A DNA stretch of 64,000 bases from NCBI GenBank assembly GCA_963756225.1, contig CAVWMZ010000004.1:3412-67411 (forward strand). Reading direction: 5' to 3'. How positions within the stretch are numbered: the stretch's first letter is position 1; each line of letters starts with the position of its first letter. The notes under the pieces are model-generated. The model had not been told where the DNA came from, did no database searches, and worked only from the letters and a program-made list of their open reading frames with translations. This DNA comes from Candidatus Staskawiczbacteria bacterium (GTDB taxonomy: Bacteria; Patescibacteriota; Minisyncoccia; Minisyncoccales; Staskawiczbacteraceae). The translations under genes were made by a program, and so were the position numbers. Below are positions 28,886-63,508 of the stretch, piece by piece.

Positions 28886-28898
28886 ATTGTGCGACAAT
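28886..28898 (+). repeat. Intergenic motif copy 1: ATTGTGCGACAAT
   Basis: Exact 12-mer core ATTGTGCGACAA. It ends 1 nt before the GNAT ATG and is preceded by a hairpin (28868-28885). Confidence 0.9.
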
Positions 28899-28899
28899 T

Positions 28900-29442
28900 A
28901 TGGTGATCAAAAAATTTGGGGATAAAAAAATTACAATAAGAAAATTAGAAGAATCAGATCTGAGAAACGCTAAAAAGTTTCAGATTTTTATAAACTCTTT
29001 GATTGACGAAGAAGTCAAAATTTTAATAAACAAAAAGAATTCACTAAAAGAAGAGAAAGATTATTTAAAAAGAACCATAGCCGCAATAAAGAGGGGGAGC
29101 AAGGTTTTTCTTTTGGCCGAGCACGGTAATAAAGTCGTTGGCTCAACAGACATAGAGTTAGAACCTTGGCGCAGGAATCACATAGGGGAATTTGGCATCA
29201 TAATTAGTAAAGAATATAGGGGATTGGGTCTTGGAGAATACTTGATGTCTGAAGTTATAAAATTAGCTAAAAAAGAACTGTGTCCGAAACCTAGAATTAT
29301 TCAATTGGCGGCCTACGCCAACAACAAGCCCGCGATAAGTCTTTATAAAAAGATGGGTTTTAAAATAATTGCCAAGATACCAAAACAAATTCAGTATAAA
29401 GGAGCGCTAATCAGCGACCTCGTAATGATTAGAGATATTTAG
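28900..29442 (+). CDS. GNAT-family N-acetyltransferase
   Basis: RGLGLGEYLM acetyl-CoA binding motif. The start was chosen at MVIKKF because the upstream part of the track ORF is intergenic-like. Confidence 0.75.
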   Translation: MVIKKFGDKKITIRKLEESDLRNAKKFQIFINSLIDEEVKILINKKNSLKEEKDYLKRTIAAIKRGSKVFLLAEHGNKVVGSTDIELEPWRRNHIGEFGIIISKEYRGLGLGEYLMSEVIKLAKKELCPKPRIIQLAAYANNKPAISLYKKMGFKIIAKIPKQIQYKGALISDLVMIRDI

Positions 29443-29448
29443 TCTTAT

Positions 29449-29461
29449 ATTGTGCGACAAA
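29449..29461 (+). repeat. Intergenic motif copy 2: ATTGTGCGACAAA
   Basis: Exact core, 6 nt after the GNAT stop codon. Confidence 0.9.
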
Positions 29462-29496
29462 TATTTTAATGAATTATTTAAACTGTTTAACTAACC

Positions 29497-29856
29497 ATGA
29501 ATAAATCTTTTATATTTTCTGCAGCCGCAATAGTTATTATATTGGTCGTTGTATTTTTAAGCCAACAACCATATTTTAAGGCAACTGGGAAAACCCTTAT
29601 TTCTGCTGCCACCAATCAAGCTAAGAGCGAGGCGGCAAAAGGCTCTGATTGGGTTGGTGCAAATATCATCTCAAAAATAGGTGGGGAAGCTCAAAATGGG
29701 GGAGACGCCATAAAAGTAGAAGCTAACCAGGAAAAAAATAATGTTTCTCAAAATATCGGACAAAAAATTTCAAATTATTTTTCTGGAGTTGCAAATAGTA
29801 TAATTCATCCAGGAAATCCGCAAAATTGTCCGGCTCCTCAAACTACTTCTAAGTAA
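29497..29856 (+). CDS. Hypothetical signal-anchored small protein
   Basis: N-terminal hydrophobic segment and a low-complexity polar remainder. Confidence 0.5.
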   Translation: MNKSFIFSAAAIVIILVVVFLSQQPYFKATGKTLISAATNQAKSEAAKGSDWVGANIISKIGGEAQNGGDAIKVEANQEKNNVSQNIGQKISNYFSGVANSIIHPGNPQNCPAPQTTSK

Positions 29857-29857
29857 A

Positions 29858-29881
29858 AGATGACCTAAGGGTCGTCTTTTG
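29858..29881 (+). terminator. Intrinsic terminator
   Basis: GATGACC/GGTCGTC stem (one G-U pair) plus T4. Confidence 0.55.
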
Positions 29882-29884
29882 GGG

Positions 29885-29913
29885 TTGACATGACCTTAGG
29901 GGACGGCTATTAT
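29885..29913 (+). promoter_or_regulatory. Sigma70-type promoter of the recombinase gene
   Basis: TTGACA, 17 nt, TATTAT. A motif-like AATGTCGCAAAAT lies just downstream at 29926-29938. Confidence 0.6.
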
Positions 29914-29989
29914 TAAGATATAAGCAATGTCGCAAAATGTAGGTTAACCGACCTATAGCCTAGGGGCCGATAAGCCAACTTATAAAAAC

Positions 29990-30961
29990 ATGCAAAACTC
30001 AAACAAAACAATTATATCAACTATTCCAGATTTTATAGATTATTGTGAAATAGAAAAAGGTTTGCGCAGCGGATCACAAGAAGTTTATAAAAAATATTTA
30101 ACACGATTTGGAAATTGGTTAGAATCCCAGAATTTAGCCTCTCTACTTCCCCACCAACTGACCCCGGATCATATTTGGAACTACCGTTTATACCTTTCCA
30201 GGCACTTAGACCCTAAATCTGGCCGTTCCCTTGGTAAGAACACCCAAAACTCGTATTTAATCGCTCTAAGAGGCCTTCTGACGTATTATGCAGCCAAAGA
30301 CATAGTTTCACTACCCTCTGACAAAATAACCCTCCCAAAGCCCGATAAAAGCCAGAAAATGATCAAATTTCTCTCCTTAGAGCAGATTGGCAAGCTTTTA
30401 TCATCTATAGAGCCAAAAGACCCTATTTCCATCCGCGACAGGGCAATTTTAGAGTCCTTTTTCTCAACCGGTCTTCGTATCGCAGAACTGGTTTCTTTGG
30501 ATCTTGAACAGTTTAACAGCATTAAAGATAAAAAGGAAATTGAACTGAGCATTAATGGCAAAGGCGGTAAGACGCGCGTTGTTTATTTTTCAGAACGCGC
30601 GCTAGGTTTCATAAAAAATTATCTAGAAATAAGAAAAGATATAAAATATGCCGATGCCAAAGCCTTGTTTATAAACTTCAGAGATAAGAAAGCCGAAAGT
30701 GATTCCCGACTTACACCAAGATCAATTGAACGAATGGTTAAAAACGCTGCCATGCATGCAGGCGTGCCGATATTTACTACCCCACATACACTCAGGCATT
30801 CATATGCCACTGATTTAATGAACCAAGGAGTTGATATAAGAAGCATTCAAGAATTTTTAGGCCACTCAAACATTGCCACCACTCAAATTTACACGCACGT
30901 AACAAATAAACGCCTCCGCGACCTACACCACCAGTTTCATAGCGACCCAGATAAAAAATAA
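29990..30961 (+). CDS. Tyrosine site-specific recombinase (XerC/XerD-like integrase family)
   Basis: SAM-like N-terminal domain. Catalytic R..HTLRHSYAT..GHSNIATTQIYTHV (R-H-R-Y signature). Confidence 0.85.
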   Translation: MQNSNKTIISTIPDFIDYCEIEKGLRSGSQEVYKKYLTRFGNWLESQNLASLLPHQLTPDHIWNYRLYLSRHLDPKSGRSLGKNTQNSYLIALRGLLTYYAAKDIVSLPSDKITLPKPDKSQKMIKFLSLEQIGKLLSSIEPKDPISIRDRAILESFFSTGLRIAELVSLDLEQFNSIKDKKEIELSINGKGGKTRVVYFSERALGFIKNYLEIRKDIKYADAKALFINFRDKKAESDSRLTPRSIERMVKNAAMHAGVPIFTTPHTLRHSYATDLMNQGVDIRSIQEFLGHSNIATTQIYTHVTNKRLRDLHHQFHSDPDKK

Positions 30962-30981
30962 TAAAATAAATCAATAAATAT

Positions 30982-31428
30982 ATGAAACAGACTACATTAA
31001 AATCTGAAGATAGTATAAATCAAGAAGTTAACAAATTTTTTGATGATGAATTTACAAAGCTCAACGATGAAGAGAAAAAAATTTTTATTGAAGAATTACA
31101 GGAGATATTTCTGGCTAAGGGCGTTAATAGCTATATAACCATTGCGACTATTACTAGTAAAAAATATCGGGACTTAGTTATAAATTTTAGCAAACAACTG
31201 GTTGAGGAATACAAATGTAAAACGGTCGCACAAAAAGCATTGGCTCAAATCGCAACGATTGAATATGTTAGAATGATTGATAACTCATATAAGTTAAATT
31301 ATGCATTAGAGCAAAGCTTCCCCGTAAACGAACGTATTCGTCTAGCTTCTTTCTTAAGCAAAGAGGTAGATAAATCCCAGAAGCAGTTCATGAAGGCTAT
31401 TACTGAACTCGAAAAAACTAAAGAATAA
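30982..31428 (+). CDS. Hypothetical protein (148 aa, helical)
   Basis: ORF only; no recognisable motif. Confidence 0.45.
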   Translation: MKQTTLKSEDSINQEVNKFFDDEFTKLNDEEKKIFIEELQEIFLAKGVNSYITIATITSKKYRDLVINFSKQLVEEYKCKTVAQKALAQIATIEYVRMIDNSYKLNYALEQSFPVNERIRLASFLSKEVDKSQKQFMKAITELEKTKE

Positions 31429-31437
31429 AAGACCAAC

Positions 31438-31467
31438 CAAAAAGAGGGCCTAATCCCCTCTTTTTTA
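31438..31467. terminator. Bidirectional hairpin terminator
   Basis: GAGGG/CCCTC stem flanked by A-run and T-run, between convergent genes. Confidence 0.5.
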
Positions 31468-31478
31468 TTTGTTATTAA

Positions 31479-31491
31479 TTTGTCACACAAT
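31479..31491 (-). repeat. Intergenic motif copy 3 (1 mismatch): ATTGTGTGACAAA
   Basis: Reads ATTGTGTGACAAA on the minus strand, 9 nt after the stop of the small minus-strand ORF. Confidence 0.8.
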
Positions 31492-31500
31492 AAAGGTCAA

Positions 31501-31641
31501 TCAGTTGTTTGATACTTTATTCGAGATTAGGTCTGCTATTTTTTGTGCTACCTCTAGTTGTTCCTCTTTGGTCATTTCCTCCCACTTTCTCCCCTTGAGT
31601 AATTCCTGCAGGCTCACTAAATTGATTGGTTCTTTTTTCAT
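31501..31641 (-). CDS. Hypothetical small protein (46 aa)
   Basis: ATG..TGA ORF MKKEPINLVSLQELLKGRKWEEMTKEEQLEVAQKIADLISNKVSNN, bracketed by motif copies 3 and 4. No obvious Shine-Dalgarno. Confidence 0.35.
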   Translation of the reverse strand: MKKEPINLVSLQELLKGRKWEEMTKEEQLEVAQKIADLISNKVSNN

Positions 31642-31654
31642 ATACTTTATTTAA

Positions 31655-31667
31655 TTTGTCGCACAAT
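31655..31667 (-). repeat. Intergenic motif copy 4: ATTGTGCGACAAA
   Basis: Exact core on the minus strand, between the Res-like gene stop (31707) and the small ORF start. Confidence 0.9.
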
Positions 31668-33774
31668 AAGATTTGGCCAAGGGTGAACGTATTGATTTTT
31701 TAATTTTTACCAAAGCAAATCTTTAATAGTTGGTTTATTTTTTATAGCTCTAAATTTCCATTCTCCCCAAGAGTCCTTATCTGCGTTTAAAGCTTCGCAC
31801 CACAATTTAGCCGACTCCCATTTCGATTGATCCTGCTCTCTCTCTTTTCCCTTAACTTCTAGCATTAAATATTTATTACCTTTCAATTTAATAATGAAAT
31901 CTGGAAAATATGACCTAAGAAGACCTTTATGAATATAAGGAATCGTAAAACCAAGATGGTCATTTTTTACCCAGGCCTCTAAATCATCTATTTCGTTATC
32001 TAAAAATTTACCTATGTTTTCCCATTTACTGTCTTGTACTAGATGACTAATATGACATTTCATTTCTGGCGAGGTGTACGTATCTCTAGTTGTATACCAG
32101 GGAGTCATTACTGCTGTTGTTTTAAACTTATTAACTGGATCGGGTATCGGATAAGATTTTGTATTCTGACTTAAATTAATTGCTTGTCTAATCACAGATG
32201 CTATTTTAGTAGTATTTAAACTGATAAGGATATTTTTATAAACATCGTAATTCTTTTTATCAGCATCAATAATAACTTTTTTTTCTATAAATTCTGAAAC
32301 TATTTTAAATATTTGTTGAAACTTATTACCATCATCAATATTTTTCCAAGTGTCATCTAGCCCACTTTTGATACTGGATGTTATTGAAAATAAGCTTTGT
32401 TTTAATCTTATGTCTTTACCTAAATATTCATTAATAGAAAGCATTTTTTGAGAGAGAGAAAAATCTGGCCTCTCAATTGTTGGAGCTACCTGAACCCATA
32501 CTGGATCCTCTGTTGATGATAAGGTGATTTTTTCAGTTTTCTCCCAGTTTATATCTATAAAATATTCTATTTCTCTCTGCACCCTAAGTATGTTGGGGAA
32601 AAGTATTTGGTATTCTTTCTTATCTTTTAATACCTGTATAAATGTTTTAGGTTTTTCATCAATTGGCCCATCTTTAGGTTTTCCTTCTATCGGCAAGAAT
32701 GTGAAGGGAATACCAAAAACTGTTACGTATTCTGCTGTAAGTAATCCTGTTTCTGGATTTACATCATAGCTCATTCTTCTTAATCCCCTTCCTACGACTT
32801 GTTCACAAAGTAGTTGGGATGTAAAAGCTCTTAATCCAAGTATTTGTTTTACATTGTTTGCATCCCACCCTTCAGATAGCATATTTACACCAACAACACA
32901 GTGAATATTTTCCTCCGGGTTTACCTGGCTTACCTACGGTGTTAAATTTTTCTCTTAAAATATTATCTTCAATATCTTCCGCAGTACTATCAACTCGTAT
33001 AATATTCTCTCTTTCAGCTATTTGTGATACGCCCAAATTACTATTTAAAATTGAAAATTCTATTCTTTTTGAAGTATATGTATTATTACAAATAACTATC
33101 ATTGACGGCGGAATATGTTTCCCCCAATTTTCTTTTATGCCCAACCAATCGGTAGAAAGTATTTTAAATGCAGTACGAACAAGGTCTGGCAAATCAATGT
33201 TTGATTCACATTTTTGATTAAGATTTTCTTTTATCCCATCTTCGTAATATATATGAAATAACTTTGACCTATCAACGACCTGGTCTGATGGATAAGAACT
33301 ATCTTTAACTGCAATGGTGGGAGTTTTTACTAGACCTGACTCAATAGCATCATGTAATCCAAAGTCTGATATTATCCAATTAAATAGTTTAAACCCCGTG
33401 TTTGAAGTACGTCCCTTAGGAACAAATGGCGTTGCAGACAAATCGTACGCAGTGATAATTCCTCGTGCTTTATGAATCTTATCCAATCCCTGTATCCAAA
33501 TTGTAGCTTCTTCATTTTCTTTTTCTTCTTCTCCTTTTTCTTCTTTTGATCTTCCAATCTCGGCTGTATCCCTGTGACAATGATGAGCTTCATCATTTAT
33601 AACAACGATAGGAGCACTACCTGGGAATTCCGAAATTACTCTTTTAGCAAAAGCACTATCGCTCTCTTCTCCCATTGATTCTCTCATCACTTTTGGTAAA
33701 GAACCATTTTTTTTTGGAGCTAATATATGCCAATTAAAGACAACCTGCAAGGTACCCATTTCTTCGGACACTGA

Positions 33775-34587
33775 TTATACAGATAAGCTTGACCTTTCGT
33801 AATGATTTCTCGCAAATTCCGCAGGCGGCATTTTCAGCGATGTCTGGATTCTGGTGTTGTTGTAATTATGGATTGTTTTGTATATCGCCCACACTAATTC
33901 TCCTAAATGGTTGAATCTGTTTGGATCTCCTAAATCAACTTTGAATTGGGAATAAAATGATTCTTGGTATCCGTTTTCCCACGGGCAGCCTTTCTCGCTC
34001 ATCGATGGATTGATTCCCAGATTGTTTTGCAATGCGACGTAATCTTTTGAAGCGTATTCTGAACCTTGGTCTGAATGGGCGATTTCCGGAACCGGATGGT
34101 TTGATACAGCCGATAAAAGAGCGTTCATTACGAGACTGCTGGAATGGTTCAGCAAGACGGAAAATCCGACAATTTCCTTCGTGAATAAATCAAGCACAGT
34201 TGCAAGGTACACTGTTCGCTTTTTGAATTGGATGTAAGTGAAGTCGGAAACCCAGATGTGATTCGGATAACTCGGACAATTTGTTAAAAGCAAATTTGGG
34301 AATTGCTCTGAATATTCTTTTTTGACTTTTTTCCATTTTTTCCCTCTGCGTCGATACGGCTTGATGCCGAATATTTTCATTACTCGCAATGTTCTCTTTT
34401 TGTTGATTTTTAAATGCATCGCCAATCTTTTGTGTCCGTAGCTGGGAAATTCTCTGAGCGTTAATTCAATCTGCTGTTTTAGTATCCAATCTTTGTCCGG
34501 CTGTTTGTGATGGTAGTAAAGCATTGAACGGGACATCCTTGCCGCTTTGCTAAACTGTGTTTTATCTAATGAACAATCTTTACTCAA
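33775..34587 (-). CDS. IS3-family transposase OrfB (DDE integrase core)
   Basis: WVSDFTY, HSDQGSEY and PWENGYQESF motifs. Confidence 0.85.
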   Translation of the reverse strand: MSKDCSLDKTQFSKAARMSRSMLYYHHKQPDKDWILKQQIELTLREFPSYGHKRLAMHLKINKKRTLRVMKIFGIKPYRRRGKKWKKVKKEYSEQFPNLLLTNCPSYPNHIWVSDFTYIQFKKRTVYLATVLDLFTKEIVGFSVLLNHSSSLVMNALLSAVSNHPVPEIAHSDQGSEYASKDYVALQNNLGINPSMSEKGCPWENGYQESFYSQFKVDLGDPNRFNHLGELVWAIYKTIHNYNNTRIQTSLKMPPAEFARNHYERSSLSV

Positions 34588-34853
34588 TCCTTTTTTTGGG
34601 CTTGGGATAGCTTTATGGTCAGCGAACCTACCAGTTCCAGCAGTCCTTTATTTTCTTTTTTCACTCTGGCGAACTCGGCCCACGATGGATTTCCCGATAC
34701 TCCCTTGGTCAGCCACTTGTAAATCGTGGCTTCGGACACGCCGTGATCCTGGCTGGCTTGGGCAACACTCACGCCTTCGTCCCTTACTCGCTTTAATATC
34801 TGGTCTTTTACTTCTTTGGCTACGTGGTAGCCTTTTTTAGTTGTAGTTGTCAT
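34584..34853 (-). CDS. IS3-family transposase OrfA (HTH)
   Basis: HTH region plus leucine-zipper-like tail. Overlaps orfB at the slippery site. Confidence 0.8.
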   Translation of the reverse strand: MTTTTKKGYHVAKEVKDQILKRVRDEGVSVAQASQDHGVSEATIYKWLTKGVSGNPSWAEFARVKKENKGLLELVGSLTIKLSQAQKKD

Positions 34854-35343
34854 ATTATCTTTTACCCCTATTATACATTTACATTGTTAATATTCAAACC
34901 CGTAGAAAGAGTGTCTGAATTTTGGGGTACCTGCCAACCACTTTTGATTGATAAATATATTCTTTTAATGACGAGGGTACAATATTAAACTCATCATAAT
35001 AATTTCCTGCACTGCTTGGGATAAGAACAGCTAACCTTTCTTTAACGGTTATTCCCGGGGCCATCACAAGAATATTTTTTGAAAATCTTGCGTCTTTAGG
35101 ATTAGTTATTTTGTTTAAAGCTTGCCATGCTATTATCATCGCCATAATTACTGTTTTCCCCGTACCAGTAGCAAGTTTCGTGCAAGCTCTTAGCCATTCA
35201 CTATCACTATTATCTTTAAGATTTATTCCCACCTTCATAGAATCAGGAGCTTCTGTAAGCCATACAATAGTTTCTTGTACTGACCCCCGTATGTAGACAA
35301 AAGGTTGAAACCTAATGTAATATGGGGAAAACACAAAAAACAC

Positions 35344-35598
35344 ATGAAAAAAGGATACAAAATATCACAGGAAGTAAAAGATCAAATATTAAAACGAGTC
35401 AAAGAAGACGGAGTCACGGTGATCCAGGCAGCCCAGGAACACGGAGTCCATGAGTCAACAATTTATGGCTGGCTAGGCAAGGGAGCCGAATCTGGCTCCA
35501 CAGCAGAACTGCTTAAACTTAAGCGTGAAAAGAAAATGCTACTGGAACTAGTGGGAGAAATGACGCTGAAGTTATCCGAATCCCAAAAAAAGAGTTGA
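35344..35598 (+). CDS. IS3-family transposase OrfA
   Basis: Paralogous to the IS-A OrfA (KGYKISQEVKDQILKRVKEDGV..). Confidence 0.8.
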   Translation: MKKGYKISQEVKDQILKRVKEDGVTVIQAAQEHGVHESTIYGWLGKGAESGSTAELLKLKREKKMLLELVGEMTLKLSESQKKS

Positions 35599-36404
35599 TT
35601 GAAAAACAGGAAGAGAAAGAAAACAAGAGCTTAATGGCAAAAGCTCTCGGAGTTTCAAGATCAGCGATTTACTACCGATCAAAGAAATTAGCCAAAGATT
35701 GGGAATTAAAAATCAAAATTGAAAAAGTATTAACTGATGATCCGAGTTATGGATACAGAAGGGTGGCTGACGCATTGCACATAAACAAGAAAAAAGCACA
35801 AAGGGTGATGAAATTATTCGGTATGAAGGCCTATCGCCGAAGAGGCAGAAAACCAAGGAAAAAAGGTGTTGCAAACACATTTTTTCCAAATCTGCTGAAA
35901 ATGAATTTCCCGCAATATCCGAATCACATCTGGGTTTCAGATTTCACCTACATACCGTTCCAAAACAAATTTGTTTATCTGGCTACGGTCATGGATTTGT
36001 TCACAAGAGAGGTTGTTGGCTGGTCAGTTCTTACCAATCATTCCGTGCAATTGACGCTGCAATCACTGTTTACTGCATTAACTTATCATTCCAGGCCTGA
36101 AATATTTCATTCGGATAACGGACGCGAATACGGGGCAAAATTGTTTATCCGGGCATTAACCGAATTCGGCATAAACATATCCCGCTCAAACAAAAAATCT
36201 CCGTGGGAAAACGGATACCAAGAAAGTTTTTACTCCCAATTCAAAGTTGACTTAGGAGATCCAAACAGATTCAAAACATTGGGGGAGCTGGTTTACGAAA
36301 TACACCACCTTATCTGGAAATACAATCACACGAGAATTCACTCCGCCTTACGCATGCCGCCGTGTTGTTCGCTAAACGATGCCAAAACGTTCAAAAACAT
36401 TTAG
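35595..36404 (+). CDS. IS3-family transposase OrfB
   Basis: WVSDFTY, HSDNGREY and PWENGYQESF motifs. Confidence 0.85.
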   Translation: MIEKQEEKENKSLMAKALGVSRSAIYYRSKKLAKDWELKIKIEKVLTDDPSYGYRRVADALHINKKKAQRVMKLFGMKAYRRRGRKPRKKGVANTFFPNLLKMNFPQYPNHIWVSDFTYIPFQNKFVYLATVMDLFTREVVGWSVLTNHSVQLTLQSLFTALTYHSRPEIFHSDNGREYGAKLFIRALTEFGINISRSNKKSPWENGYQESFYSQFKVDLGDPNRFKTLGELVYEIHHLIWKYNHTRIHSALRMPPCCSLNDAKTFKNI

Positions 36405-36672: not shown

Positions 36673-37282
36673 TTAAAAAGTTACAGACTTAATGAAGGGT
36701 ATGAGTTTTTTCCCAATTACTTCTTGTCTGAATGTAGCCCGTTCTTTTTCGCTCATTTCTGAAATATATTTTCCACTGGTAGGGTCAATCTGGATAGATT
36801 CAAGAGGATAACCCGGAATACGCGAATTGCTTACCTTGCTGGTGAATACCCTAGGAGACACTATTGTTATTCCATGTTTTTCTCCTAACGAGGTAATGAA
36901 GCAGATAGCAAATTCAAATCTCCCATTAATTCTACCGCCAAGTTTTTTAACTAAATTAGAATAATAACTCAACATTTCTTCGTCAGTGGCCCTGTCGTTA
37001 GAGTTTTTGATTCTCCTAACATTGAGTCCCGGCTGTTTCTTCTGGCCTCAATCCATCTAGATACAAGGCGTTATCCATCGATAGAACATTTTTACCTAAG
37101 ACCTTGGCGTAAGCCAGTGCTTTTTTCTGAGCATTCTGCTGTGGAGTTTTACCATCTTCTTCCACATCGGGCAATATAGCATCTTTACTAATGCCATTTA
37201 TTATTATTTCAAGAGGTTGAAGCGCGTCTCTTATTTGTTCTATTTTAGCAGGATTAGTTGTGCCGACTATAATTTCTTTCAT
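36673..37282 (-). pseudogene. Ham1/RdgB-family non-canonical purine NTP pyrophosphatase, one frameshift as sequenced
   Basis: N-terminal GTTNPAKIEQI..SMDNALYLDGL. After a shift near 37020 it continues EEQPGLNVRRI...MLSYYSNLV... Length is 3n+1. Confidence 0.6.
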
Positions 37283-37330
37283 ATATTTACTTTTATTTTA
37301 TCAAAAAAACCACCTCAATTAAAAGGTGGC

Positions 37331-37343
37331 TTTGTCGCACAAT
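37331..37343 (-). repeat. Intergenic motif copy 5: ATTGTGCGACAAA
   Basis: Exact core on the minus strand, 4 nt after the cupin stop. It is immediately followed by terminator hairpin CCACC/GGTGG (37311-37330) plus a T-run. Confidence 0.9.
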
Positions 37344-37347
37344 AAAA

Positions 37348-37720
37348 TCACCTTATTCTGCCATAATCATCTTCAAATCTAATTATGTCTTCCTCATCAA
37401 AAAGTCCAAAAGAAATTTCAAGAACCTTGCCTGTTTTTTTAGTGCCGATTAGTCTGTGTTTAGCGCCTTTTGGAATATTTATCTGCTGTCCCTTTTTAAG
37501 TTTATGCTCTACGCCCTCTATAACTGCAACAACTTCTCCTTTGATGCAAAGCCAAAATTCTTCACGATTTTTGTGCTTTTGATAAGAAAGACGACTTTTA
37601 GGATTTACTGTTAATATCTTAACCGTTGATTGCTCATTAAGAGTAAACTGTTTCGAATTTGCCCCATGGTTTTTCTACCACCAAAATTTTACGATTATTT
37701 CTTAATTTTTTAGCCTTCAT
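37348..37720 (-). pseudogene. Small cupin, mannose-6-phosphate isomerase type II C-terminal-domain-like, one frameshift as sequenced
   Basis: Minus-strand reading gives KPWGKFE..VKILTVNPKSRLSYQKHKNREEFW..IPKGAKHRLIG..FGLFDEEDIIRFEDDYGR. ATGA overlap with the tag stop. Missed by the ORF track because of the shift near 37640. Confidence 0.65.
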
Positions 37721-39370: not shown

Positions 39371-40322
39371 TTTTATATTGTAATATTTCCAGCTGCCGTG
39401 GTAACTTTTTTAATAGATTTTTCTGTCATGATAATATCTTAACAAAAAATCCCATCAATTAAAAGGTGATTTTATTGCGTAATAATATCTTTATTGAACG
39501 TACTGCTAATGTTATGATAATCCGATAATTTTTTTCCTTGTATAAAATATAGTTATAAGCGCCACAGACCAGTTTATTAGGAATACCGAAATCCAAATTC
39601 CGTCTATTTTAAAATAAAAAGATAAGAAAGAAAACATAATTAAAGGAAAAATAATTTGTCGAGCCAATCCAATATATAAAGCGTACATTGGTTTTTGCAA
39701 TCCTTGCAGAGCAGAAACATTTAGAAACAAAAGCAAATAAGCCCAGGTTAAAAATGAAGCATAAATTAAATAATGAGCGCCAATATTTATCACATCCACA
39801 TCAGAAGTGAATATTCTCATTAGATATTTGGCAAAAAATAATAAGCAGACAGTCCCAAATGTCATTAAATAAAGCCCGTATTTTGTTGTGATTTTTATGG
39901 TTTCTCTTACTCTGTCAAATTTTTTTGCTCCGTTATTCTGACCAACCAATGTTAATGTGGCAATGCTTAGTCCAACCGTAGGCAGTAAAAACAACTGCTC
40001 TATTCTGGTTGCTATTCCGTAGGCTGCAACAGAATCTTTCCCAAATATAGATATAAAATAAGTTATAACAAATATGCCAACCCCAACGCTAGCAGTATTT
40101 AGGGCTGACGGAAGACCCTGATTTATTATTCCCAAATAAGGTTCTTTCTGCGGCATTATTTTTTTAAGACTGGGCGCTTCAAATAAAAAAGTTTTTGAGG
40201 CTTTAAGCCCCATATAAATTGTTCCGCCAGCTTGCACTAAAACCGTTGCAAGGGCGACTCCGGCTACGCCAAGTTTTGGCAAGCCAAACCATCCAAACAT
40301 AAGTATCGGATCTAAAAGAATA

Positions 40323-41087
40323 GGCTCTAGACTAGCAGTCTGTCATGGTATAATGACAAAATGTTAGTAAATAGTCTCAAAAAATCTAAATTATTGACAT
40401 TTAAAATTAAAAAAATTATTGAACACTTTTGTTTGGATATTAACGCCTCCAAAGCAGCTCCTCTGGTGGGCGTAAATCGCAACACGATAAATTACTGGTA
40501 CAACAGATTTCGTGTGGCAATTTATGCTCATCAGCACAAAGAATTTGAAAAGATTTTCGGTGAAGCGGAAGTGGACGAATCATATTTTGGAGCAAGGCGC
40601 AAACGCGGATTTCACGGCAAGCTGAAACGCGGACGAGGCACGCAGAAGCAACCGGTGTTCGGAATACTGAAACGCAACGGACATGTTTACACGGAAATTG
40701 TTCCTAACTGTAAAAAAGACATTCTGCAAAGCATTATCAGAGGGAAAGTAGATAAATCAGCAGTAATTTATTCGGACAGCTGGCGTAGCTATGACGGACT
40801 TGTTGATGTAGGATACGACAAACATTTCAGGGTTAATCACGGAGACAATGAATTTGCAAGGAAAGGTACAGGTATTCACATCAACGGCATTGAAAATTTC
40901 TGGAGCTTCACCAAACGTCAACTGGCTAAATTTAATGGTGTAAAAAAGAATTTTGAACTGCATCTTAAAGAGTCAGAGTGGCGCTACGGAAAAACAAATG
41001 ATACAATGAAAAAGGAATTGTGGAAAATTATTAAAAAATATTATTAAATTAATCGGCTACTTTGACTAGTCTTGCTAGTCTAGAGCC
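40323..41087 (+). mobile_element. IS1595-family insertion sequence, copy 2
   Basis: Same inverted repeats as copy 1. Target duplication AAGAATA at 40316-40322 and 41088-41094. Confidence 0.9.
40361..41047 (+). CDS. IS1595-family transposase
   Basis: Differs from copy 1 by 2 aa (S12L, R187Q). Confidence 0.8.
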   Translation: MLVNSLKKSKLLTFKIKKIIEHFCLDINASKAAPLVGVNRNTINYWYNRFRVAIYAHQHKEFEKIFGEAEVDESYFGARRKRGFHGKLKRGRGTQKQPVFGILKRNGHVYTEIVPNCKKDILQSIIRGKVDKSAVIYSDSWRSYDGLVDVGYDKHFRVNHGDNEFARKGTGIHINGIENFWSFTKRQLAKFNGVKKNFELHLKESEWRYGKTNDTMKKELWKIIKKYY

Positions 41088-41737
41088 AAGAATATTAGCG
41101 AATAGGCCAACTATTAAAAAATTCCGGAAAGTTTTGGTATCTCCGATAGAATTTAGGATTGCATTAAATACATAAACCATTATGAAAAATATAGTTCCAT
41201 AAAAAATCATATTCATAAAGGCAAGTGATAAGCCTAGATAGCTCCCCTCTGCTCCCAATAACTTAAATAAATATGGCGATGCCAATATCCCAATTATCAT
41301 AATTGGAATAGAAATTAAAATACCAAAAGATATTGCCTGCAAACTATAGCGCTTTCCTTCTTCGTGATTTTTTCTGCCCAGATGATTAGAAATTATTGCG
41401 GTAGCTCCCGTGGATAGTCCTGTGCCAATTGATATTAAAATAAAGAAAATTGGAAACGATAAAGACAACGCAGCAATTGCCTGAGTTGAAATTAACCCAG
41501 AATAGATAGTATCTACAATATTAAATAATGTATTAAAAAAGAATCCGATAATGGCGGGCACAGCCATCATTTTTACTAGTCCGGCAATTGGCTCCGACGT
41601 TAAATTTGAATCTTTTGTGTCCATCTTGAATAAATTTAATAATAATGATTACTATTAATTATTATACTTTGCCTAAAGCATTAAATCAATCTAAAAGCCG
41701 CTTAATTAAAGGCGGCTTTATTGGATTCCGCGATAGC

Positions 41738-47911: not shown

Positions 47912-47924
47912 ATTGTCGCACAAT
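47912..47924 (-). repeat. Intergenic motif copy 6: ATTGTGCGACAAT
   Basis: Exact core on the minus strand, between the terminator of secreted paralogue 1 and the next promoter. Confidence 0.9.
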
Positions 47925-50985: not shown

Positions 50986-51098
50986 ACCCTTATCTTCCCC
51001 ATTAGGGGTTTGGATTTAGCACCTTTATTGAGGAGTCGCCCCAAAAGGTTGCTGGACGGGTCGCAGAGCCAATTCTCTCACCGCCACTCTTGATAAAT
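50986..51098 (-). ncRNA. SAM-I (S-box) riboswitch
   Basis: Minus strand reads UUAUCAAGAGUGGCGGUGAGAGAAUUGGCUC..GACCCGUCCAGCAACC...AAGGUGCUAAAUCC...GAAGAUAAGGG. This matches the conserved S-box core and P1 (CUUAUC/GAUAAG). Confidence 0.85.
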
Positions 51099-51204
51099 AA
51101 ATTGTTTAATAAATATATTATATCAAATATAAATTGATATGCAAATTTTACAAAAAAAAGGGCGCGAATGCTGCTGCATCGCGCCATAACTTTAATTATT
51201 TTCC

Positions 51205-54210: not shown

Positions 54211-54261
54211 TATTGTAAAATTAGAAGCCTATTGTCGCATAATCGACAATTTGGTACAATA
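54211..54261. promoter_or_regulatory. Nested palindrome upstream of the LAGLIDADG gene
   Basis: Outer arms are TATTGTA (54211) and TACAATA (54255). Inner arms are ATTGTCG (54231) and CGACAAT (54244). The inner left arm plus spacer, ATTGTCGCATAAT, is a 1-mismatch variant of the recurrent motif in reverse orientation. Confidence 0.7.
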
Positions 54262-54288: not shown

Positions 54289-54783
54289 ATGGCAAAAAAA
54301 ATTTTCAGCCTTGCGGAAATAGTAAACAATGATGGATGTTTTGATCTTCAATTTAGAAAAGACACAAGACACGAACGAACAAACTCCCCTACATATTATC
54401 GATGGAAAACGCAATTTATAGTAACCGCCTCCAAGGAAGATATAAAAACATTAGAAAAAATTAAAAAAATTATAGGTTGCGGCGAAGTCTCTATATCAAA
54501 GGAACAAGCAAGATTTTCTGTACAAAAAATAGATGATATTTCAGTAAATGTGGTTCCTTTCTTTAAAAAAAATCTGTTGGCCAACAAAAAGAAAAAAGAT
54601 TTCGAGCTTTGGGCAAAGGCAGTTGATATTATCCAAAAGAATAAAGGCAAGTATTTAAACGACTGGAAAAAAACCGACGTATGCAATCTCATAGAAATCC
54701 ATAAGTCGTCTGCCAAGTATAAAAACCGCCCAAGACAACCTAAGTGGCTAGAGATGGCGAGAACCTTCTGCCAGACAAGTTAA
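54289..54783 (+). CDS. Free-standing single-motif LAGLIDADG homing endonuclease (164 aa)
   Basis: SLAEIVNNDGCF (LAGLIDADG motif with the conserved Asp-Gly). Also IGCGEVS, VVPFFKKNLLANKKKKDFELWAKAV, and an I-CreI-like size. Confidence 0.75.
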   Translation: MAKKIFSLAEIVNNDGCFDLQFRKDTRHERTNSPTYYRWKTQFIVTASKEDIKTLEKIKKIIGCGEVSISKEQARFSVQKIDDISVNVVPFFKKNLLANKKKKDFELWAKAVDIIQKNKGKYLNDWKKTDVCNLIEIHKSSAKYKNRPRQPKWLEMARTFCQTS

Positions 54784-56699: not shown

Positions 56700-57464
56700 G
56701 GCTCTAGACTAGCAAGACTAGTCAAAGTAGCCGATTAATTTAATAATATTTTTTAATAATTTTCCACAATTCTTTTTTCATTGTATCATTTGTTTTTCCG
56801 TAGCGCCACTCTGACTCTTTAAGATGCAGTTCGAAATTCTTTTTTACACCATTAAATTTAGCCAGTCGACGTTTGGTGAAGCTCCAGAAATTTTCAATGC
56901 CGTTGATGTGAATACCTGTACCTTTCCTTGCAAATTCATTGTCTCCGTGATTAACCCTGAAATGTTTGTCGTATCCTACATCAACAAGTCCGTCATAGCT
57001 ACGCCAGCTGTCCGAATAAATTACTGCTGATTTATCTACTTTCCCTCTGATAATGCTTTGCAGAATGTCTTTTTTACAGTTAGGAACAATTTCCGTGTAA
57101 ACATGTCCGTTGCGTTTCAGTATTCCGAACACCGGTTGCTTCTGCGTGCCTCGTCCGCGTTTCAGCTTGCCGTGAAATCCGCGTTTGCGCCTTGCTCCGA
57201 AATATGATTCGTCCACTTCCGCTTCACCGAAAATCTTTTCAAATTCTTTGTGCTGATGAGCATAAATTGCCACACGAAATCTGTTGTACCAGTAATTTAT
57301 CGTGTTGCGATTTACGCCCACCAGAGGAGCTGCTTTGGAGGCGTTAATATCCAAACAAAAGTGTTCAATAATTTTTTTAATTTTAAATGTCGATAATTTA
57401 GATTTTTTGAGACTATTTACTAACATTTTGTCATTATACCATGACAGACTGCTAGTCTAGAGCC
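56700..57464 (-). mobile_element. IS1595-family insertion sequence, copy 3
   Basis: Target duplication TAGTTTA at 56693-56699 and 57465-57471. The latter contains the uppS stop codon. Confidence 0.9.
56740..57426 (-). CDS. IS1595-family transposase
   Basis: Protein identical to copy 1. Confidence 0.8.
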   Translation of the reverse strand: MLVNSLKKSKLSTFKIKKIIEHFCLDINASKAAPLVGVNRNTINYWYNRFRVAIYAHQHKEFEKIFGEAEVDESYFGARRKRGFHGKLKRGRGTQKQPVFGILKRNGHVYTEIVPNCKKDILQSIIRGKVDKSAVIYSDSWRSYDGLVDVGYDKHFRVNHGDNEFARKGTGIHINGIENFWSFTKRRLAKFNGVKKNFELHLKESEWRYGKTNDTMKKELWKIIKKYY

Positions 57465-60365: not shown

Positions 60366-60366
60366 A

Positions 60367-60843
60367 TTATTCTTCTATTTTATCGTCTGCAGCAGTACCC
60401 GTAGCCGCAGCAATAATTACTTTTATCTCTGCTTCTAAATTATGCTCTAAAGTTATGCTTACGGGAAATTCTCCAAGATCTTTAATGGGGCTTTCTAGTT
60501 TAACCTGCGTTTTTTTAATTTCAAATCCCATTTCCTTTAATTTCTCGGCAATTTTTTGATTATTTATTGATTCAAAGAGTTGTCCTTCATCTCCAACCCT
60601 TACTGCAATATTTAACTCCAAGCCATCAAGACCTGAAGCCAATGCTTGCGATTTCTTTAAATCTTCTTCCGCCTTTTGTTCTATAACTTCTTTTTGATCG
60701 GACAACCATTTTAAACCTTGTTTAGTTGCGGCTCTTGCTAATTTTTCTGGCAATAAAAAATTTCGGGCATGACCATTTTTTACATCTTTTACTTCATATT
60801 TTTTACCAAGACCTTCAACGTCTTGCAAGAGAATCACTTTCAT
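60367..60843 (-). CDS. rplI: 50S ribosomal protein L9
   Basis: MKVILLQDVEGLGKKYEVKDVKNGHARNFLLP. Confidence 0.9.
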   Translation of the reverse strand: MKVILLQDVEGLGKKYEVKDVKNGHARNFLLPEKLARAATKQGLKWLSDQKEVIEQKAEEDLKKSQALASGLDGLELNIAVRVGDEGQLFESINNQKIAEKLKEMGFEIKKTQVKLESPIKDLGEFPVSITLEHNLEAEIKVIIAAATGTAADDKIEE

Positions 60844-60921
60844 GTTTTTGGATTTATATTTTTTTTAATTCCGAGAATTACAATTATGCAATTAGCGGTT
60901 TTTTTAATATATATTTATATA

Positions 60922-62103
60922 TTACTTTAAGTTGTTTACTATTTCAAGTGCCTTGTCTAATTGCGGATCTTTTTTCTGCTGAATATCCTGATCGGTCATA
61001 TCAACTTTTACGTCGGGTGTCAACCCAATATCGGTAATTGAATTTCTTTTTGGGGTTAGCCAATTGGCAATAGTTATTTTAAGAAAAGATCCATCTCTTA
61101 GATTTATTACTTCTTGAACGCAACCCTTTCCAAAAGATTTAGTTCCAATTAATTGCACATTCCTATCGTCTCTAAGTGCGCCAGCTAAAATTTCGGACGC
61201 AGAAGCAGAGCCCTGGTTCATTAAAATAACTATTGGATAATTAGCGAGATTAGCGTTTCCGTCGGCTTTATATACTTGCTGTGGTTTAGCTTTGCCGAAA
61301 TCTTCTATAGTTACTGTTTGCCCGCTTTGCAAAAACCATCCAGCAATACCTTGAGCGGCATCTAAATATCCGCCCGGATTATCTCTTAAATCTAATACTA
61401 TCTTTTTGGCGGGGCTTTGTAAGATCTTAAGAGCTATCGCTTCAAAATCAGAGGGAAGGGTTTCGTCAAATTGATATATTTGGATATATGCCACATCTCC
61501 ATCCTTTAATGACCACTCCACAGAAGGGACTGTTATGGTACCCCTAATAACCTTAATATCTTTTGTGCTATCCCATCCATTTCTTAGAATAGATAGTGTA
61601 ACCGACGTTCCTTTTTGCCCCCTGATAAGGTTTACGGCGTCATCAGCTGTCATATTGCTAGTATCTTGCCCGTTTATTTTCGCAATTATGTCGCCAGATT
61701 CTAATCCGGCTTTTTGTCCCGGAGTATTTTTTAAAGGCGCTATAATTGTTAATAGCCCGTTTTTAATACCAATTTCTACTCCAATGCCATCAAAAGATCC
61801 TGCCAAATCGTCTTGAAATTCTTTTGCTTGAGTTGGATCAAAAAATTCAGTATATGGATCTCCTAATGAATTTGTCATACCCTCTATGGCACCATATACA
61901 ACTTTTTGGTTGTTTATTTTATCGGGAGTTATAAAATTTTGCTGAAGTTTATTGTAGGCGTCCCAAAAAAGAGAAAAATCGATAGTGCCAGGCTGTTGTA
62001 CGCGATAAGCCAACTTCGTGTCTCCGATCCAAAGACCCAAACCAAAAACAACAATAAAACAGACAAATAAAATTACGAAATAAATTATTTTTTTACTATT
62101 CAT
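60922..62103 (-). CDS. ctpA: S41-family carboxy-terminal processing protease (PDZ domain)
   Basis: TM anchor, PDZ (GLESGDIIAKING), GSASASEILAGAL and SFGKG. Confidence 0.85.
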   Translation of the reverse strand: MNSKKIIYFVILFVCFIVVFGLGLWIGDTKLAYRVQQPGTIDFSLFWDAYNKLQQNFITPDKINNQKVVYGAIEGMTNSLGDPYTEFFDPTQAKEFQDDLAGSFDGIGVEIGIKNGLLTIIAPLKNTPGQKAGLESGDIIAKINGQDTSNMTADDAVNLIRGQKGTSVTLSILRNGWDSTKDIKVIRGTITVPSVEWSLKDGDVAYIQIYQFDETLPSDFEAIALKILQSPAKKIVLDLRDNPGGYLDAAQGIAGWFLQSGQTVTIEDFGKAKPQQVYKADGNANLANYPIVILMNQGSASASEILAGALRDDRNVQLIGTKSFGKGCVQEVINLRDGSFLKITIANWLTPKRNSITDIGLTPDVKVDMTDQDIQQKKDPQLDKALEIVNNLK

Positions 62104-62246
62104 ACAAACATAATAATACCAAAAATAAAATTATAAAGCAATAGTTTAAAATAGGTAAAAAATGATAATATCGCTAAAATTTAACAAAAAATCTCTGTTT
62201 TAGAACAGAGATTTTTGCTTATAAATATTTATAGCCAGTATCACTT

Positions 62247-63326
62247 TTATTTAGACCCTCCAAATAAACTCGAGAAAAAATTCACAATTGCTTGCCAAAT
62301 AGAAACGCTCTTGGAACCATTCTGTGATGCCACCACCGTCTGGGATCCAGTTGTTGTAGTCGCACCGGCACAGGCCGCTATCGCGTTATTCCTTGCCGAT
62401 ATTAAAGCAGTCATATAGGGGACCTTAGCCTGCTTAACCGCGGGGTCGTTGTTATATACATCGTTAGCGGCTTTTATGGCAGCGCTATAGGGGACCTTAG
62501 CTTGTTTAACTGTAGAATTGTTATTATAGGCGTCATTAGCGGCTTTTATGGCAGCAGCTCTAGCTGTTAAATCTGTAAGCTTTTGTGCAGCAATTATCGC
62601 AGCCTGTTTTGTCGCTAATTGAGACTTTGTTGCGGCGTTTAGAGCGTCTGTTGCGATTTTTATCGCAGCCTGTTTTGTCGCTAATTGAGACTTTGTTGCG
62701 GCGTTTAGAGCGTCTAAGGCCGGTTTTATAGCGCCTTGTTGCTTACTATTCATGCAAGCTTGTTCTGCTACTGTATATTTTACAGGAGCCGAGGTTGAAG
62801 TTGAAGTTCCTGCTGGCTTCTGAGTTACAACCGAATTCAACAAAGCTGAAGTGGATTTTTGAAATATATTTTTAAGCGTATCTAAGAAAGTTGTCCCGCT
62901 CACCGTCGTACCCGTGCAAGTTGCTATAGCACTTGTTCTTGCAGTTGTTAAGGCGCTCATATATGGAGCCCTTGCTTGTTTAACTGCGGGGTCGTTATTG
63001 AATACATCGTTAGCGGCTTTTATGGCGGCGGCTCTAGCTGTTAAATCTGTAAGCTTTTGTGCAGCAATTACCGCAGTTTGTCTTATCGCCGATGCACTTT
63101 TTGTTGCGGCAGAAAAAATATCTTGGGCCGGCTTAGTTGCGGTTCGCAGATTGCTGCTTATACAGGTTTGCTGAGCTGTAGTATATTTTACAGGAGCTGG
63201 AATAGTTCTACGCGCTGTTACACTAGTTGTTGCGGCAGAGGCGTCTCCAAAAACTAGAACTGAAACAAAAATTAATAAAAATATACTAAATATTTTTTTG
63301 TTGCTCATATTTTTTGCACCCTTCAT
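62247..63326 (-). CDS. Secreted Ala/Thr/Lys-rich repeat protein
   Basis: Signal peptide. It has repeated QKLTDLTARAAAIKAAND..NN....VKQA..PY and ALNAATKSQLATKQAAI modules. An exact 54-bp segment is repeated with a 66-bp period (62596-62649 and 62662-62715). Confidence 0.65.
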   Translation of the reverse strand: MKGAKNMSNKKIFSIFLLIFVSVLVFGDASAATTSVTARRTIPAPVKYTTAQQTCISSNLRTATKPAQDIFSAATKSASAIRQTAVIAAQKLTDLTARAAAIKAANDVFNNDPAVKQARAPYMSALTTARTSAIATCTGTTVSGTTFLDTLKNIFQKSTSALLNSVVTQKPAGTSTSTSAPVKYTVAEQACMNSKQQGAIKPALDALNAATKSQLATKQAAIKIATDALNAATKSQLATKQAAIIAAQKLTDLTARAAAIKAANDAYNNNSTVKQAKVPYSAAIKAANDVYNNDPAVKQAKVPYMTALISARNNAIAACAGATTTTGSQTVVASQNGSKSVSIWQAIVNFFSSLFGGSK

Positions 63327-63495
63327 TTTATAAAAATGAGAAGAGTATAATTAATTAAATATTAATTTTATTAAACTATTTATATAAGTATACCTCATCC
63401 AATAAAAAACAAAAGTGGTGTCAATATTAAAACTGTGTATAACTTTTTTTCTGAAGATTTACAGCACATAACAAAAAATCGAGAACGTTCTCAAT

Positions 63496-63508
63496 TTTGT
63501 CGCACAAT
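63496..63508 (-). repeat. Intergenic motif copy 7: ATTGTGCGACAAA
   Basis: Exact core on the minus strand, 3 nt after the stop at 63512. It is followed by terminator hairpin TTGAGAACGTTCTCGA plus a T-run. Confidence 0.9.

Follow-up and report, generated by a model that had tools for sequence, protein, structure and literature searches.

Opposed arrays of dif-like half-sites beside the xer gene of Candidatus Staskawiczbacteria

The closest known analogue of the sites described here is the XDS of Bacillus subtilis, a dif-like sequence of the terminus region. XerD is reported to bind such sites in B. subtilis and Staphylococcus aureus independently of XerC and to unload Smc-ScpAB (PMC11840125, PMC10945525, 10.1101/2021.09.09.459576; Karaboja et al. 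2021 as described there). An XDS is defined as an arm, a degenerate central region of 5 to 6 bp, and the innermost 5 bp of a second XerD arm (10.1101/2021.09.09.459576). At dif, the Xer recombinase takes apart joined sister chromosomes. The dif site itself is marked by an intergenic position, low G+C content, palindromic arms, a location at a switch in skew, and, in single-recombinase systems, linkage to the recombinase gene (PMC2731167). Extra dif-like terminus sites are known from some bacteria; none is described for the Patescibacteria (Candidate Phyla Radiation [CPR]) in the literature that we searched, and next to nothing is known of how the tiny chromosomes of these uncultured organisms are organized, segregated, and diversified. 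Here, we analyze a 64,000-nt stretch of a Candidatus Staskawiczbacteria genome (the window; 37% G+C, with 23S and 5S rRNA genes at its start), in which a 12-nt sequence, ATTGTGCGACAA, recurs on both sides of a dif site and of the adjacent gene for a XerC/XerD-like tyrosine recombinase, xer. The recurrent sites match a single arm of dif, and their orientation depends on the side of dif on which they lie.

Exact copies of the 12-mer occur at 28886(+), 29449(+), 31656(-), 37332(-), 47913(-), and 63497(-), versus a chance expectation of about 0.008 exact copies of a given 12-mer over both strands of 64 kb. A preceding analysis of the letters of the window alone (the sequence-only reading) had reported these six copies and judged them nonrandom, and it was right on both counts, except that its minus-strand coordinates were each one base too low. 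It had also listed two looser variants. The one placed at 29926 is the left arm of dif, a two-mismatch copy at 29927(-) (ATTTTGCGACAT), and the one placed at 54231 is a one-mismatch copy at 54232(-) (ATTATGCGACAA). Further one-mismatch copies lie at 31480(-) (ATTGTGTGACAA) and, inside a gene, at 17295(+) (ATTGTGCGAGAA), the latter absent from the sequence-only reading. When up to two mismatches are allowed, the window holds 12 copies versus 5.7 ± 2.4 in shuffled sequences, which is not clearly above chance, so that the signal resides in the exact and near-exact copies. The copies and their surroundings are as follows.

28886..28897 (+): half-site, exact, left array; 98 nt past the gltX stop codon and 2 nt before the ATG of a GNAT acetyltransferase gene
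29449..29460 (+): half-site, exact, left array; 6 nt past the GNAT stop codon and 36 nt ahead of the gene for a 119-aa protein
31480..31491 (-): half-site with one mismatch (ATTGTGTGACAA), right array; 9 nt past an open reading frame (ORF) of 46 aa, with a bidirectional terminator (31439-31465) next to it
31656..31667 (-): half-site, exact, right array; 39 nt past the stop codon of a restriction-endonuclease fragment
37332..37343 (-): half-site, exact, right array; 9 nt past a frameshifted cupin gene, then a hairpin and a T-run
47913..47924 (-): half-site, exact, right array; directly behind a terminator-like hairpin
54232..54243 (-): half-site variant (ATTATGCGACAA); antisense to both flanking genes and overlapping the -35 box of the LAGLIDADG gene promoter
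63497..63508 (-): half-site, exact, 33.5 kb to the right of dif; 3 nt past a stop codon, with a hairpin and a T-run next
17295..17306 (+): in-gene copy with one mismatch (ATTGTGCGAGAA), of correct polarity, in the window gene at 16767-17645

All six exact copies are intergenic and co-oriented with the adjacent genes; the copy at 31480 faces a convergent gene, and that at 54232 is antisense to both of its neighbors. Several positional claims of the sequence-only reading were borne out, namely, the concentration of the motif in the mosaic half of the window, the spacing of 3 to 9 nt past stop codons (6, 9, 9, and 3 nt at 29449, 31480, 37332, and 63497), and the terminator (31480) or hairpin-plus-T-run (37332 and 63497) behind three of the stop-adjacent copies. 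The copy said to abut an ATG does precede that of the GNAT gene, at a gap of 2 nt rather than 1 nt.

Searching species-representative genomes with the glutamyl-tRNA synthetase (gltX) protein returned 80 loci, the ten nearest of which are from Candidatus Staskawiczbacteria (67 to 82% identity). There are 23 occurrences of the exact 12-mer across nine of these ten loci and none in the remaining 70, which come from other Patescibacteria, Clostridia, and so on. The 12-mer is lineage specific and strongly overrepresented. A metagenome scan with a 17-mer version of the motif contributed 120 further loci, retrieved by the motif itself. After the removal of coding coincidences (the peptides LSHNKT of UvrB in unrelated taxa, LLCDK of gltX, and FYCATK of a protein of ~840 aa), 109 unique intergenic sites were kept for a sequence logo. 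Viral contigs scanned with a 14-mer gave single chance matches only, and a literature search for the motif sequence returned only unrelated primers.

The logo of the 109 sites reads TTTT-A-TT[G/A]TGCGACA-A, and conservation ends there on both sides. The core, ATT[G/A]TGCGACA, is invariant and has the T-tract ahead of it; variation is limited to position 4 (G, sometimes A, the latter in 19 of 109 sites) and position 12 (A > G > C/T), and the information content amounts to ~24 bits or more.

A related sequence lies just upstream of xer. When the intergenic spacers that separate the 119-aa gene from xer were aligned for about 30 loci, a conserved 28-bp element emerged, downstream of a promoter and upstream of xer, with the consensus ATGTCGCAAAA-TGTAGG-TAAAGCGACGT. 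In the window, the core of the locus is arranged as follows.

29497..29856 (+): gene for a 119-aa protein, conserved, in the conserved core between the arrays; N-terminal hydrophobic segment, no family match
29885..29913 (+): promoter-like TTGACA-17-TATTAT, ahead of dif and xer; the best promoter match in 28.5-38 kb, conserved in relatives
29927..29954 (unstranded): dif, 11-6-11, ATGTCGCAAAA TGTAGG TTAACCGACCT, between the xer promoter and the xer ATG
29990..30961 (+): xer, encoding a XerC/XerD-like tyrosine recombinase with the R-K-H-R-H-Y catalytic residues all present

A sub-clade has the form AGTTCGCATAA-TTATAG-TTAAGCGAACA, in which both arms are altered in concert (covariation). The left arm of this form is identical at 10 of 11 positions to the XerC arm of dif in Erwinia (GGTTCGCATAA) and at 9 of 11 to that in E. 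coli (GGTGCGCATAA) (PMC2731167). The promoter-dif-xer layout recurs downstream of gltX in sister Patescibacteria, where the arms are ACGTCGCACAA or AGGTCGCACAA. The element at 29927-29954 has a length of 28 bp, an 11-6-11 structure, partially palindromic arms that are related to known Xer-binding arms, an intergenic position 36 nt upstream of xer, and a location at the flip of gene orientation and GC skew; by these features, it is a canonical dif site. The reverse complement of the motif, TTGTCGCA[C/T]AA, matches the dif arm of this lineage and the arms of the sister lineages at 9 to 10 of 11 positions and also matches the classical XerC arm, and the A at motif position 1 corresponds to the last base of the dif central region. 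The sequence-only reading had declared the motif not dif-like; the motif is one arm of the very dif that precedes the recombinase gene.

No inverted arm and no CAHAA element occurs at offsets -16 to -5 in the logo of the 109 sites. Having one arm and a T-tract and lacking a second arm, the recurrent sites are best described as dif half-sites, each corresponding to an 11-bp Xer arm plus the last base of the dif central region, with the T-tract ahead. In its 28-bp, 11-6-11 structure, low G+C content, spacer at the skew switch, and location beside a single recombinase gene, the complete site resembles those of the XerS-difSL, XerH-difH, and archaeal XerA-dif systems (PMC2731167). Unlike those systems, which are described with one dif, the arm is amplified here into two opposed single-arm arrays.

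The recombinase scores ~210 to 220 bits with XerC and XerD models, below their equivalog cutoffs, and 113.8 bits with the integron integrase model TIGR02249, whose cutoff is 265. From the likeness of the sites to Xer-binding arms, Xer is the presumed reader of both dif and the half-sites. The placement of dif inside the xer leader is conserved across several Patescibacteria lineages, suggesting that Xer regulates its own gene; Xer bound at dif would probably have this autoregulatory effect. In some genomes (L252/L275 and L288), an extra inverted pair of motif-like sequences, e.g., GCCGATATTGTGCGACAT...ATCGCACAATATCGGC, lies just downstream of dif and may be a second dif-like or hairpin element. 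Sequences of the type ATATATTGTGCGACG(T) are present ~1.7 to 3 kb downstream of gltX at many loci of other Patescibacteria (L014 and L017-L029), which suggests that the linkage of gltX to dif, and the dif arm itself, are widespread in the phylum, even at loci in which no xer homologue was found.

Other kinds of repeated or expressed element were considered and set aside. The copies do not belong to a MITE or to some longer repeat family, in that their flanks are unrelated. REP elements are at least 20 nt long, as opposed to a unit of 12 to 16 nt here; the stem is not maintained, and the conserved flanking gene encodes a tyrosine recombinase and not a RAYT (Y1 HUH) protein. An integron would have structured attC sites of 57 to 141 bp with inverse-core and core sites, as opposed to a conserved unit of 12 to 16 nt without conserved flanks or structure. 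A mini-ORF, in which [A/G]TG CGA CA[A/G] would encode Met-Arg-Gln, was rejected on the grounds that synonymous Arg codons are never used and that the reading frames stop after 4 to 15 unrelated codons.

The orientation of the half-sites is almost invariant with respect to dif. At loci that contain xer, sites to the left of dif run forward and sites to its right run in reverse in 114 of 117 cases, and the polarity is obeyed by 49 of 50 sites in the loci that were chosen by gltX and not by the motif. Intergenic sites obey it in 85 of 88 cases. Only 38 of these 88 are sense to both neighboring genes, and 18 are antisense to both; 17 of the 18 nonetheless have the orientation appropriate to their side of dif. 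Antisense examples include the window copy at 54232 and, in about a dozen species, one or two copies in the interval from xer(+) to the LAGLIDADG gene(+). Site orientation follows the side of dif and xer and not local transcription, contrary to the earlier claim that the copies read in the direction of the flanking genes.

These counts bear directly on whether the motif could act at the level of the transcript or as the target of a transcription factor, that is, as an RNA hairpin at 3' ends, a terminator accessory, a promoter, or a GntR-type operator (TnGTnnnACnA). Many copies do lie 3 to 15 nt past stop codons and beside terminators, one copy forms a promoter -35 box, and the sequence fits TNGT-N3-ACNA, which is the FadR-type operator pattern. 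But 18 of 88 sites are antisense to both neighbors and several lie in convergent spacers, the information content far exceeds what a regulon operator needs, no stable hairpin is predicted, and the G4-to-A change is uncompensated. A -10 box at fixed spacing is present only at the LAGLIDADG gene. We consider an explanation of this kind highly improbable.

Its individual forms also fared poorly when taken singly. Against an RNA or DNA hairpin, which the sequence-only reading had drawn from a 5-bp palindrome, 19 of 109 sites have A in place of G4, which disrupts the pairing without compensation, the partner C10 being invariant, and the predicted stability is no better than that of shuffled sequence. 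As a promoter, the forward motif resembles an extended -10 element (TRTGn plus GACAAW) and the reverse motif a -35 or a -10 element, but a scan for a -10 box at fixed spacing gave a true peak at 17 nt only, where every case is the LAGLIDADG gene, a second peak at 12 nt being a coding coincidence. A GntR/FadR-type operator fits the pattern but leaves the polarity, the clustering, and the information content unexplained. What survives of the earlier suggestions, which ranged from a protein operator to a recombination core or an RNA hairpin, is a sequence recognized by a protein or used in recombination; this is plausible, with the neighboring tyrosine recombinase as the right suspect, whereas the RNA hairpin fails.

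The half-sites are also clustered. Within 2 kb of dif, the gltX-chosen loci have 5 to 7 sites per 10 kb; from 5 to 35 kb away, the density is ~1 per 10 kb, which is still ~25 times the chance level of ~0.04 per 10 kb. The DNA sampled reaches ~35 kb to either side of dif, and sites extend to at least 33 kb. In the window, as in 7 of 8 relatives, xer marks a reversal of both gene orientation and GC skew, and we presume this point to be the replication terminus. Origin markers (DnaA, ParB, GyrB, and FtsK motifs) were sought in the fetched loci, and none was found.

Sites also occur inside genes in some relatives. Perfect copies lie to the left of dif in gltX, in the gene for the ~840-aa protein, in murD, and in the homologue of the window gene at 16767-17645, where the window copy at 17295 has a perfect or near-perfect counterpart, similarly placed, in relatives. 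These in-gene copies, from loci ascertained via the motif, fall in varied reading frames and always have the polar orientation. The description of the motif as strictly intergenic accordingly holds for the exact copies of the window and not for relatives, which carry sense-oriented copies within genes. In sister lineages, single half-sites (TTGTGCGACAT) flank xer with the same polarity in 5 of 5 cases; these lineages have no arrays and no LAGLIDADG gene. One half-site, in locus L304 at ~3200-3250, stands directly behind the 3' end of an apparent tRNA gene (GGTTCGATTCCCGGTGGGTCCACA).

Short sequences that point in opposite directions on the two sides of dif or of the terminus are known in KOPS/SRS, Tus-Ter, and RTP-Ter. 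Unlike the half-sites, those sequences, whose readers are FtsK, Tus, or RTP, bear no relation to dif arms, and KOPS are 8-mers that are common in genes genome-wide. The density of KOPS rises toward dif. If the half-sites were a polar sequence of the KOPS/SRS type, steering FtsK or SpoIIIE to dif and distributed genome-wide with skew switching at the origin and at dif, then their near-perfect polarity toward dif from both sides, the rise in density near dif, and the polar orientation of all in-gene copies would be expected. What would not be expected is that the sequence is the Xer arm of dif itself, that it has 11 to 12 invariant bases as opposed to the 7 to 8 of KOPS-type motifs, that nearly all sites are intergenic near dif, and that density drops more than fivefold within 5 kb of dif. 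We regard this account as improbable.

The comparison with XDS is closer. Like XDS, the half-sites are extra dif-like sites with an arm of the recombinase-binding type, lie in the terminus region, and are not themselves sites of dimer resolution; their arm matches that of their own dif at 9 to 10 of 11 positions, and they are located in the terminus apart from dif. They differ from XDS in that there is apparently one Xer here and not a XerC/XerD pair, and in that the half-sites lack the partial second arm and have a T-tract in place of the degenerate central region. They are also much denser (up to 7 per 10 kb beside dif), are strictly polar to dif, and bound variable blocks of genes. Strict polarity is a feature that we did not find described for XDS in the literature searched. 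The unusual features of the locus are the single arm, the strict polarity, the expansion into arrays, and the coincidence with module boundaries.

From the observed match to the dif arm, together with the polarity, the clustering and conservation of the sites, and their place at the edges of gene blocks, we favor, with moderate confidence, the interpretation that the half-sites are binding sites of the single Xer, set in two opposed terminus arrays of the XDS type, with the module boundaries as a consequence. By binding the half-sites, Xer would coat the terminus with oriented protein-DNA complexes. These complexes might act as do the XDS of B. subtilis and, by analogy, unload SMC complexes coming from the origin; they might equally stop some other machine moving toward dif. 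The half-sites of either array have the outer end of the arm directed toward dif and the T-tract directed away from it, and the polarity would be sensible if a machine arriving from the origin side met the same face of Xer on each chromosome arm. The half-sites would double as preferred breakpoints for deletion, insertion, and inversion between sites, for which their common T-rich "central" flank could make them mutually suitable. Because this flank (TTTTA) differs from the dif central region in the same orientation (CCTACA), half-sites could exchange strands with one another and not with dif. Such breakage is our proposed reason for the bounding of accessory blocks by sites. As a side effect, Xer occupancy would probably repress xer and the LAGLIDADG gene.

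The conserved backbone of the locus has the order murG, gltX, the 119-aa gene, xer, a 164-aa LAGLIDADG gene, uppS (undecaprenyl diphosphate synthase), rpmA, pyrG, and rplI. Variable genes occupy three slots, those that separate gltX from the 119-aa gene, xer from the LAGLIDADG gene, and the LAGLIDADG gene from uppS. The second of these slots spans 23 kb in the window and is empty in several relatives. Sites are kept at the same syntenic slots while their flanks diverge, and empty slots retain 0 to 3 sites. In one pair of loci that are ~90% identical (L002 and L255), the interval between xer and a shared 362-aa gene holds one gene in L002 and three in L255; on the xer side, the homology crosses the arm of a half-site and ends at its T-tract. 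At the position in L255 (1320-1370) where L002 has a half-site after the 362-aa gene, the sequence is ATTG-CCTGCCTGCCGGCAGGCAGG-TGAGACAAT, in which the ends of the site are kept and its center is replaced by a 20-nt GC-rich palindrome.

The content of the blocks is mixed. A 114-aa gene similar to pyrimidine-dimer glycosylases lies in the right array of L015 and in the left array of L218, in the same orientation relative to the sites, and the nucleotide homology ends at the site 3' of the gene. Its identity of 79% falls inside the backbone range of 72 to 83%, which fits relocation within the lineage, e.g., through a terminus-symmetric inversion or one between inverted half-sites, and not recent transfer. 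The riboflavin synthase of the window is Moranbacteria-like, its nearest homologues being no more than 69% identical, and no half-sites were found at the homologous riboflavin operons of other lineages. By sequence affinity, then, the content of a block can be foreign, and the sites appear to belong to the host lineage. A metK gene (49816-50865), with an S-adenosylmethionine (SAM) riboswitch upstream at 50987-51099(-), lies inside the variable interval between xer and the LAGLIDADG gene both in the window and in L003.

Accessory blocks of variable content that are bounded by Xer-type sites, with imperfect sites tolerated, are known from the dif modules (pdif) of Acinetobacter and from the IMEX elements CTXphi and TLCphi (PMC6449649, PMC13141974, PMC12907356; 10.1101/2021.09.09.459576). 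The half-sites might, by the same token, be primarily the recombination sites of a Xer-driven system of gene modules, akin to integrons, IMEX, or Acinetobacter dif modules, in which circular or excised modules would be inserted, deleted, and inverted via the shared TTTTA flank, and polarity would be a by-product of array growth and selection on gene orientation. We judge this possible but doubtful. It would explain the variable genes between direct repeats of the site in both arrays and the retention of 0 to 3 sites in empty slots, the breakage of the L002/L255 block replacement at the junction of T-tract and arm, the occurrence of one gene in left and right arrays with a site 3' of it, the conservation of a central-like flank, as recombination partners need, and the foreign look of the riboflavin synthase. 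Moreover, IMEX attachment sites with one nonbinding arm still recombine (10.1101/2021.09.09.459576).

Against it, the half-sites have no second arm for a second recombinase monomer, unlike pdif and attP sites, which have two arms and a 6-bp center. Many blocks contain multiple genes and extend up to 10 kb without internal sites, whereas conserved sites are present in slots where no module is ever seen and sense-oriented ones inside conserved genes, places that cannot be the boundary of a module. The sister lineages keep single polar half-sites without arrays, the identity of the relocated gene fits a terminus-symmetric inversion, and no circular intermediates or recent presence/absence pairs were seen. 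The arrangement differs as well: pdif sites alternate between C/D and D/C and are mostly on plasmids, whereas half-sites are direct within an array, chromosomal, and mirror-symmetric about dif, and IMEX integrate into dif itself. A bolder version, to which we attach somewhat less credence and which we offer only tentatively, is that Xer and dif have been co-opted as a gene-capture platform at the terminus, in which modules would be inserted, excised, or flipped between two mirror arrays with TTTTA as the crossover flank, sparing dif and perhaps helped by the LAGLIDADG nuclease.

Several points also weigh against the preferred interpretation of the half-sites as an XDS-type array bound by Xer. 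The binding of Xer at half-sites, and with it every functional consequence, would follow from sequence similarity only. The absence of a second arm and the conserved T-tract flank depart from the definition of an XDS. The placement of the terminus rests on flips in gene strand and GC skew that are mutually confounded, and decomposition by third codon position did not separate them. The sampled range is compatible with a spread of polar sites that may be genome-wide, at ~1 site per 10 kb, as in KOPS. Block replacement at sites comes from the single closely related pair L002/L255. Finally, the loci are related by descent, and the motif itself served to retrieve 120 of them, so that site counts do not represent independent events.

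The right-hand anchor of the variable region is the gene for a small LAGLIDADG protein.

54289..54783 (+): LAGLIDADG protein, 164 aa, single-domain, conserved; right-hand anchor of the variable region

This gene occupies one syntenic position next to xer and dif in all Staskawiczbacteria loci (L002-L015 and the homologues in L201-L300). Its product is single-copy, with more than 100 relatives at 71 to 77% identity, retains the catalytic Asp of the LAGLIDADG motif, and is single-domain like I-CreI. Such conservation is unlike that of a decaying selfish endonuclease, and the protein appears to be domesticated and not selfish. The promoter of the gene, in more than 20 loci, consists of TTGTCG, the first six bases of a reversed half-site, a 17-nt spacer, and TATAAT; the window has TTGTCG at 54232-54237 as the -35 box and TACAAT at 54255-54260 as the -10 box. 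Occupancy of this half-site by Xer would overlap the -35 box. Abutting the same half-site in the window is a partial inverted arm (54224-54251[-]; ATTGTCG-ATTATG-CGACAAT), which gives a 7-bp stem of -7.5 kcal/mol (z = -3.1) whose spacing is not dif-like.

The position of this gene is relevant to a further explanation, in which the half-sites would be Ter-like polar fork barriers that form a fork trap around dif and are bound by the LAGLIDADG protein or by Xer itself. Two opposed groups of polar sites do flank the presumed terminus, the protein is single-copy and conserved, and arrays are present only in the lineage that has it, the sister lineages without half-site arrays being also without the gene. 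In E. coli, tus is autoregulated through TerB, which lies in the tus promoter much as a half-site overlaps the LAGLIDADG -35 box. Yet the site is the Xer arm; the usual targets of LAGLIDADG homodimers are palindromes of ~20 bp, a symmetry that the sites lack; the retained catalytic Asp points to a nuclease-like protein and not to a pure DNA binder; and the sister lineages have polar half-sites without a LAGLIDADG protein. A fork trap strikes us as very improbable, more so than sequences of the KOPS type.

Still less credible is that the 12-mer serves as a DNA uptake sequence of the Neisseria (DUS) or Haemophilus (USS) type, biasing natural transformation in a CPR lineage that depends on uptake, which we would place last among the explanations considered. 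A lineage-specific, overrepresented, exact 12-mer that often stands beside terminators is what such a sequence would look like. Strict polarity around xer and clustering at dif are, however, not traits of uptake sequences, and identity to the dif arm gives a simpler account.

The locus pinpoints dif and the presumed replication terminus of an ultra-small CPR chromosome, and the amplification of a dif arm into oriented arrays suggests a role of Xer beyond dimer resolution, as for XerD at the XDS of Bacillus. If the sites only bind Xer, the XDS principle would extend to a distant phylum and to a single-recombinase system, with strict polarity in addition. If they recombine, they would provide a new route of gene capture, and, were the gene-capture platform to prove true, an integron-like system built from Xer and half-sites would exist in ultra-small CPR genomes. 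The locus is also identified as a site of accessory-gene turnover, the genes concerned in the window including acetyltransferases, DNA-repair glycosylases, riboflavin genes, and restriction enzymes. For metagenome-assembled genomes (MAGs) of the lineage, the motif is a practical marker of termini and variable islands.

Other features of the window lie apart from the half-sites. Rfam models matched only rRNA and the SAM riboswitch, and exact-match look-ups with the window proteins returned no record. At 22244-24732 and 37016-37700, the window has split or truncated versions of several genes that relatives keep intact, namely, murD, in three pieces of 96, 91, and 62 aa, ftsW, in two, the frameshifted cupin gene, and an 88-aa Ham1 fragment. 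These split genes could reflect either pseudogenization or frameshift errors in the assembly. A restriction endonuclease of the BPTD_3080 family persists as fragments at 31707-32882, 32872-33759, and 34894-35238 (region 31707-36404), interrupted by two opposed copies of a two-ORF unit resembling an insertion sequence (IS) at 33775-34853 and 35344-36404. A transposase gene of the IS1595 family is present in three near-identical copies, at 11384-12070(+), 40361-41047(+), and 56740-57426(-), the second of which (~40.4-41.0 kb) lies between ORFs 39512-40300 and 41049-41624, apparent halves of one membrane transporter.

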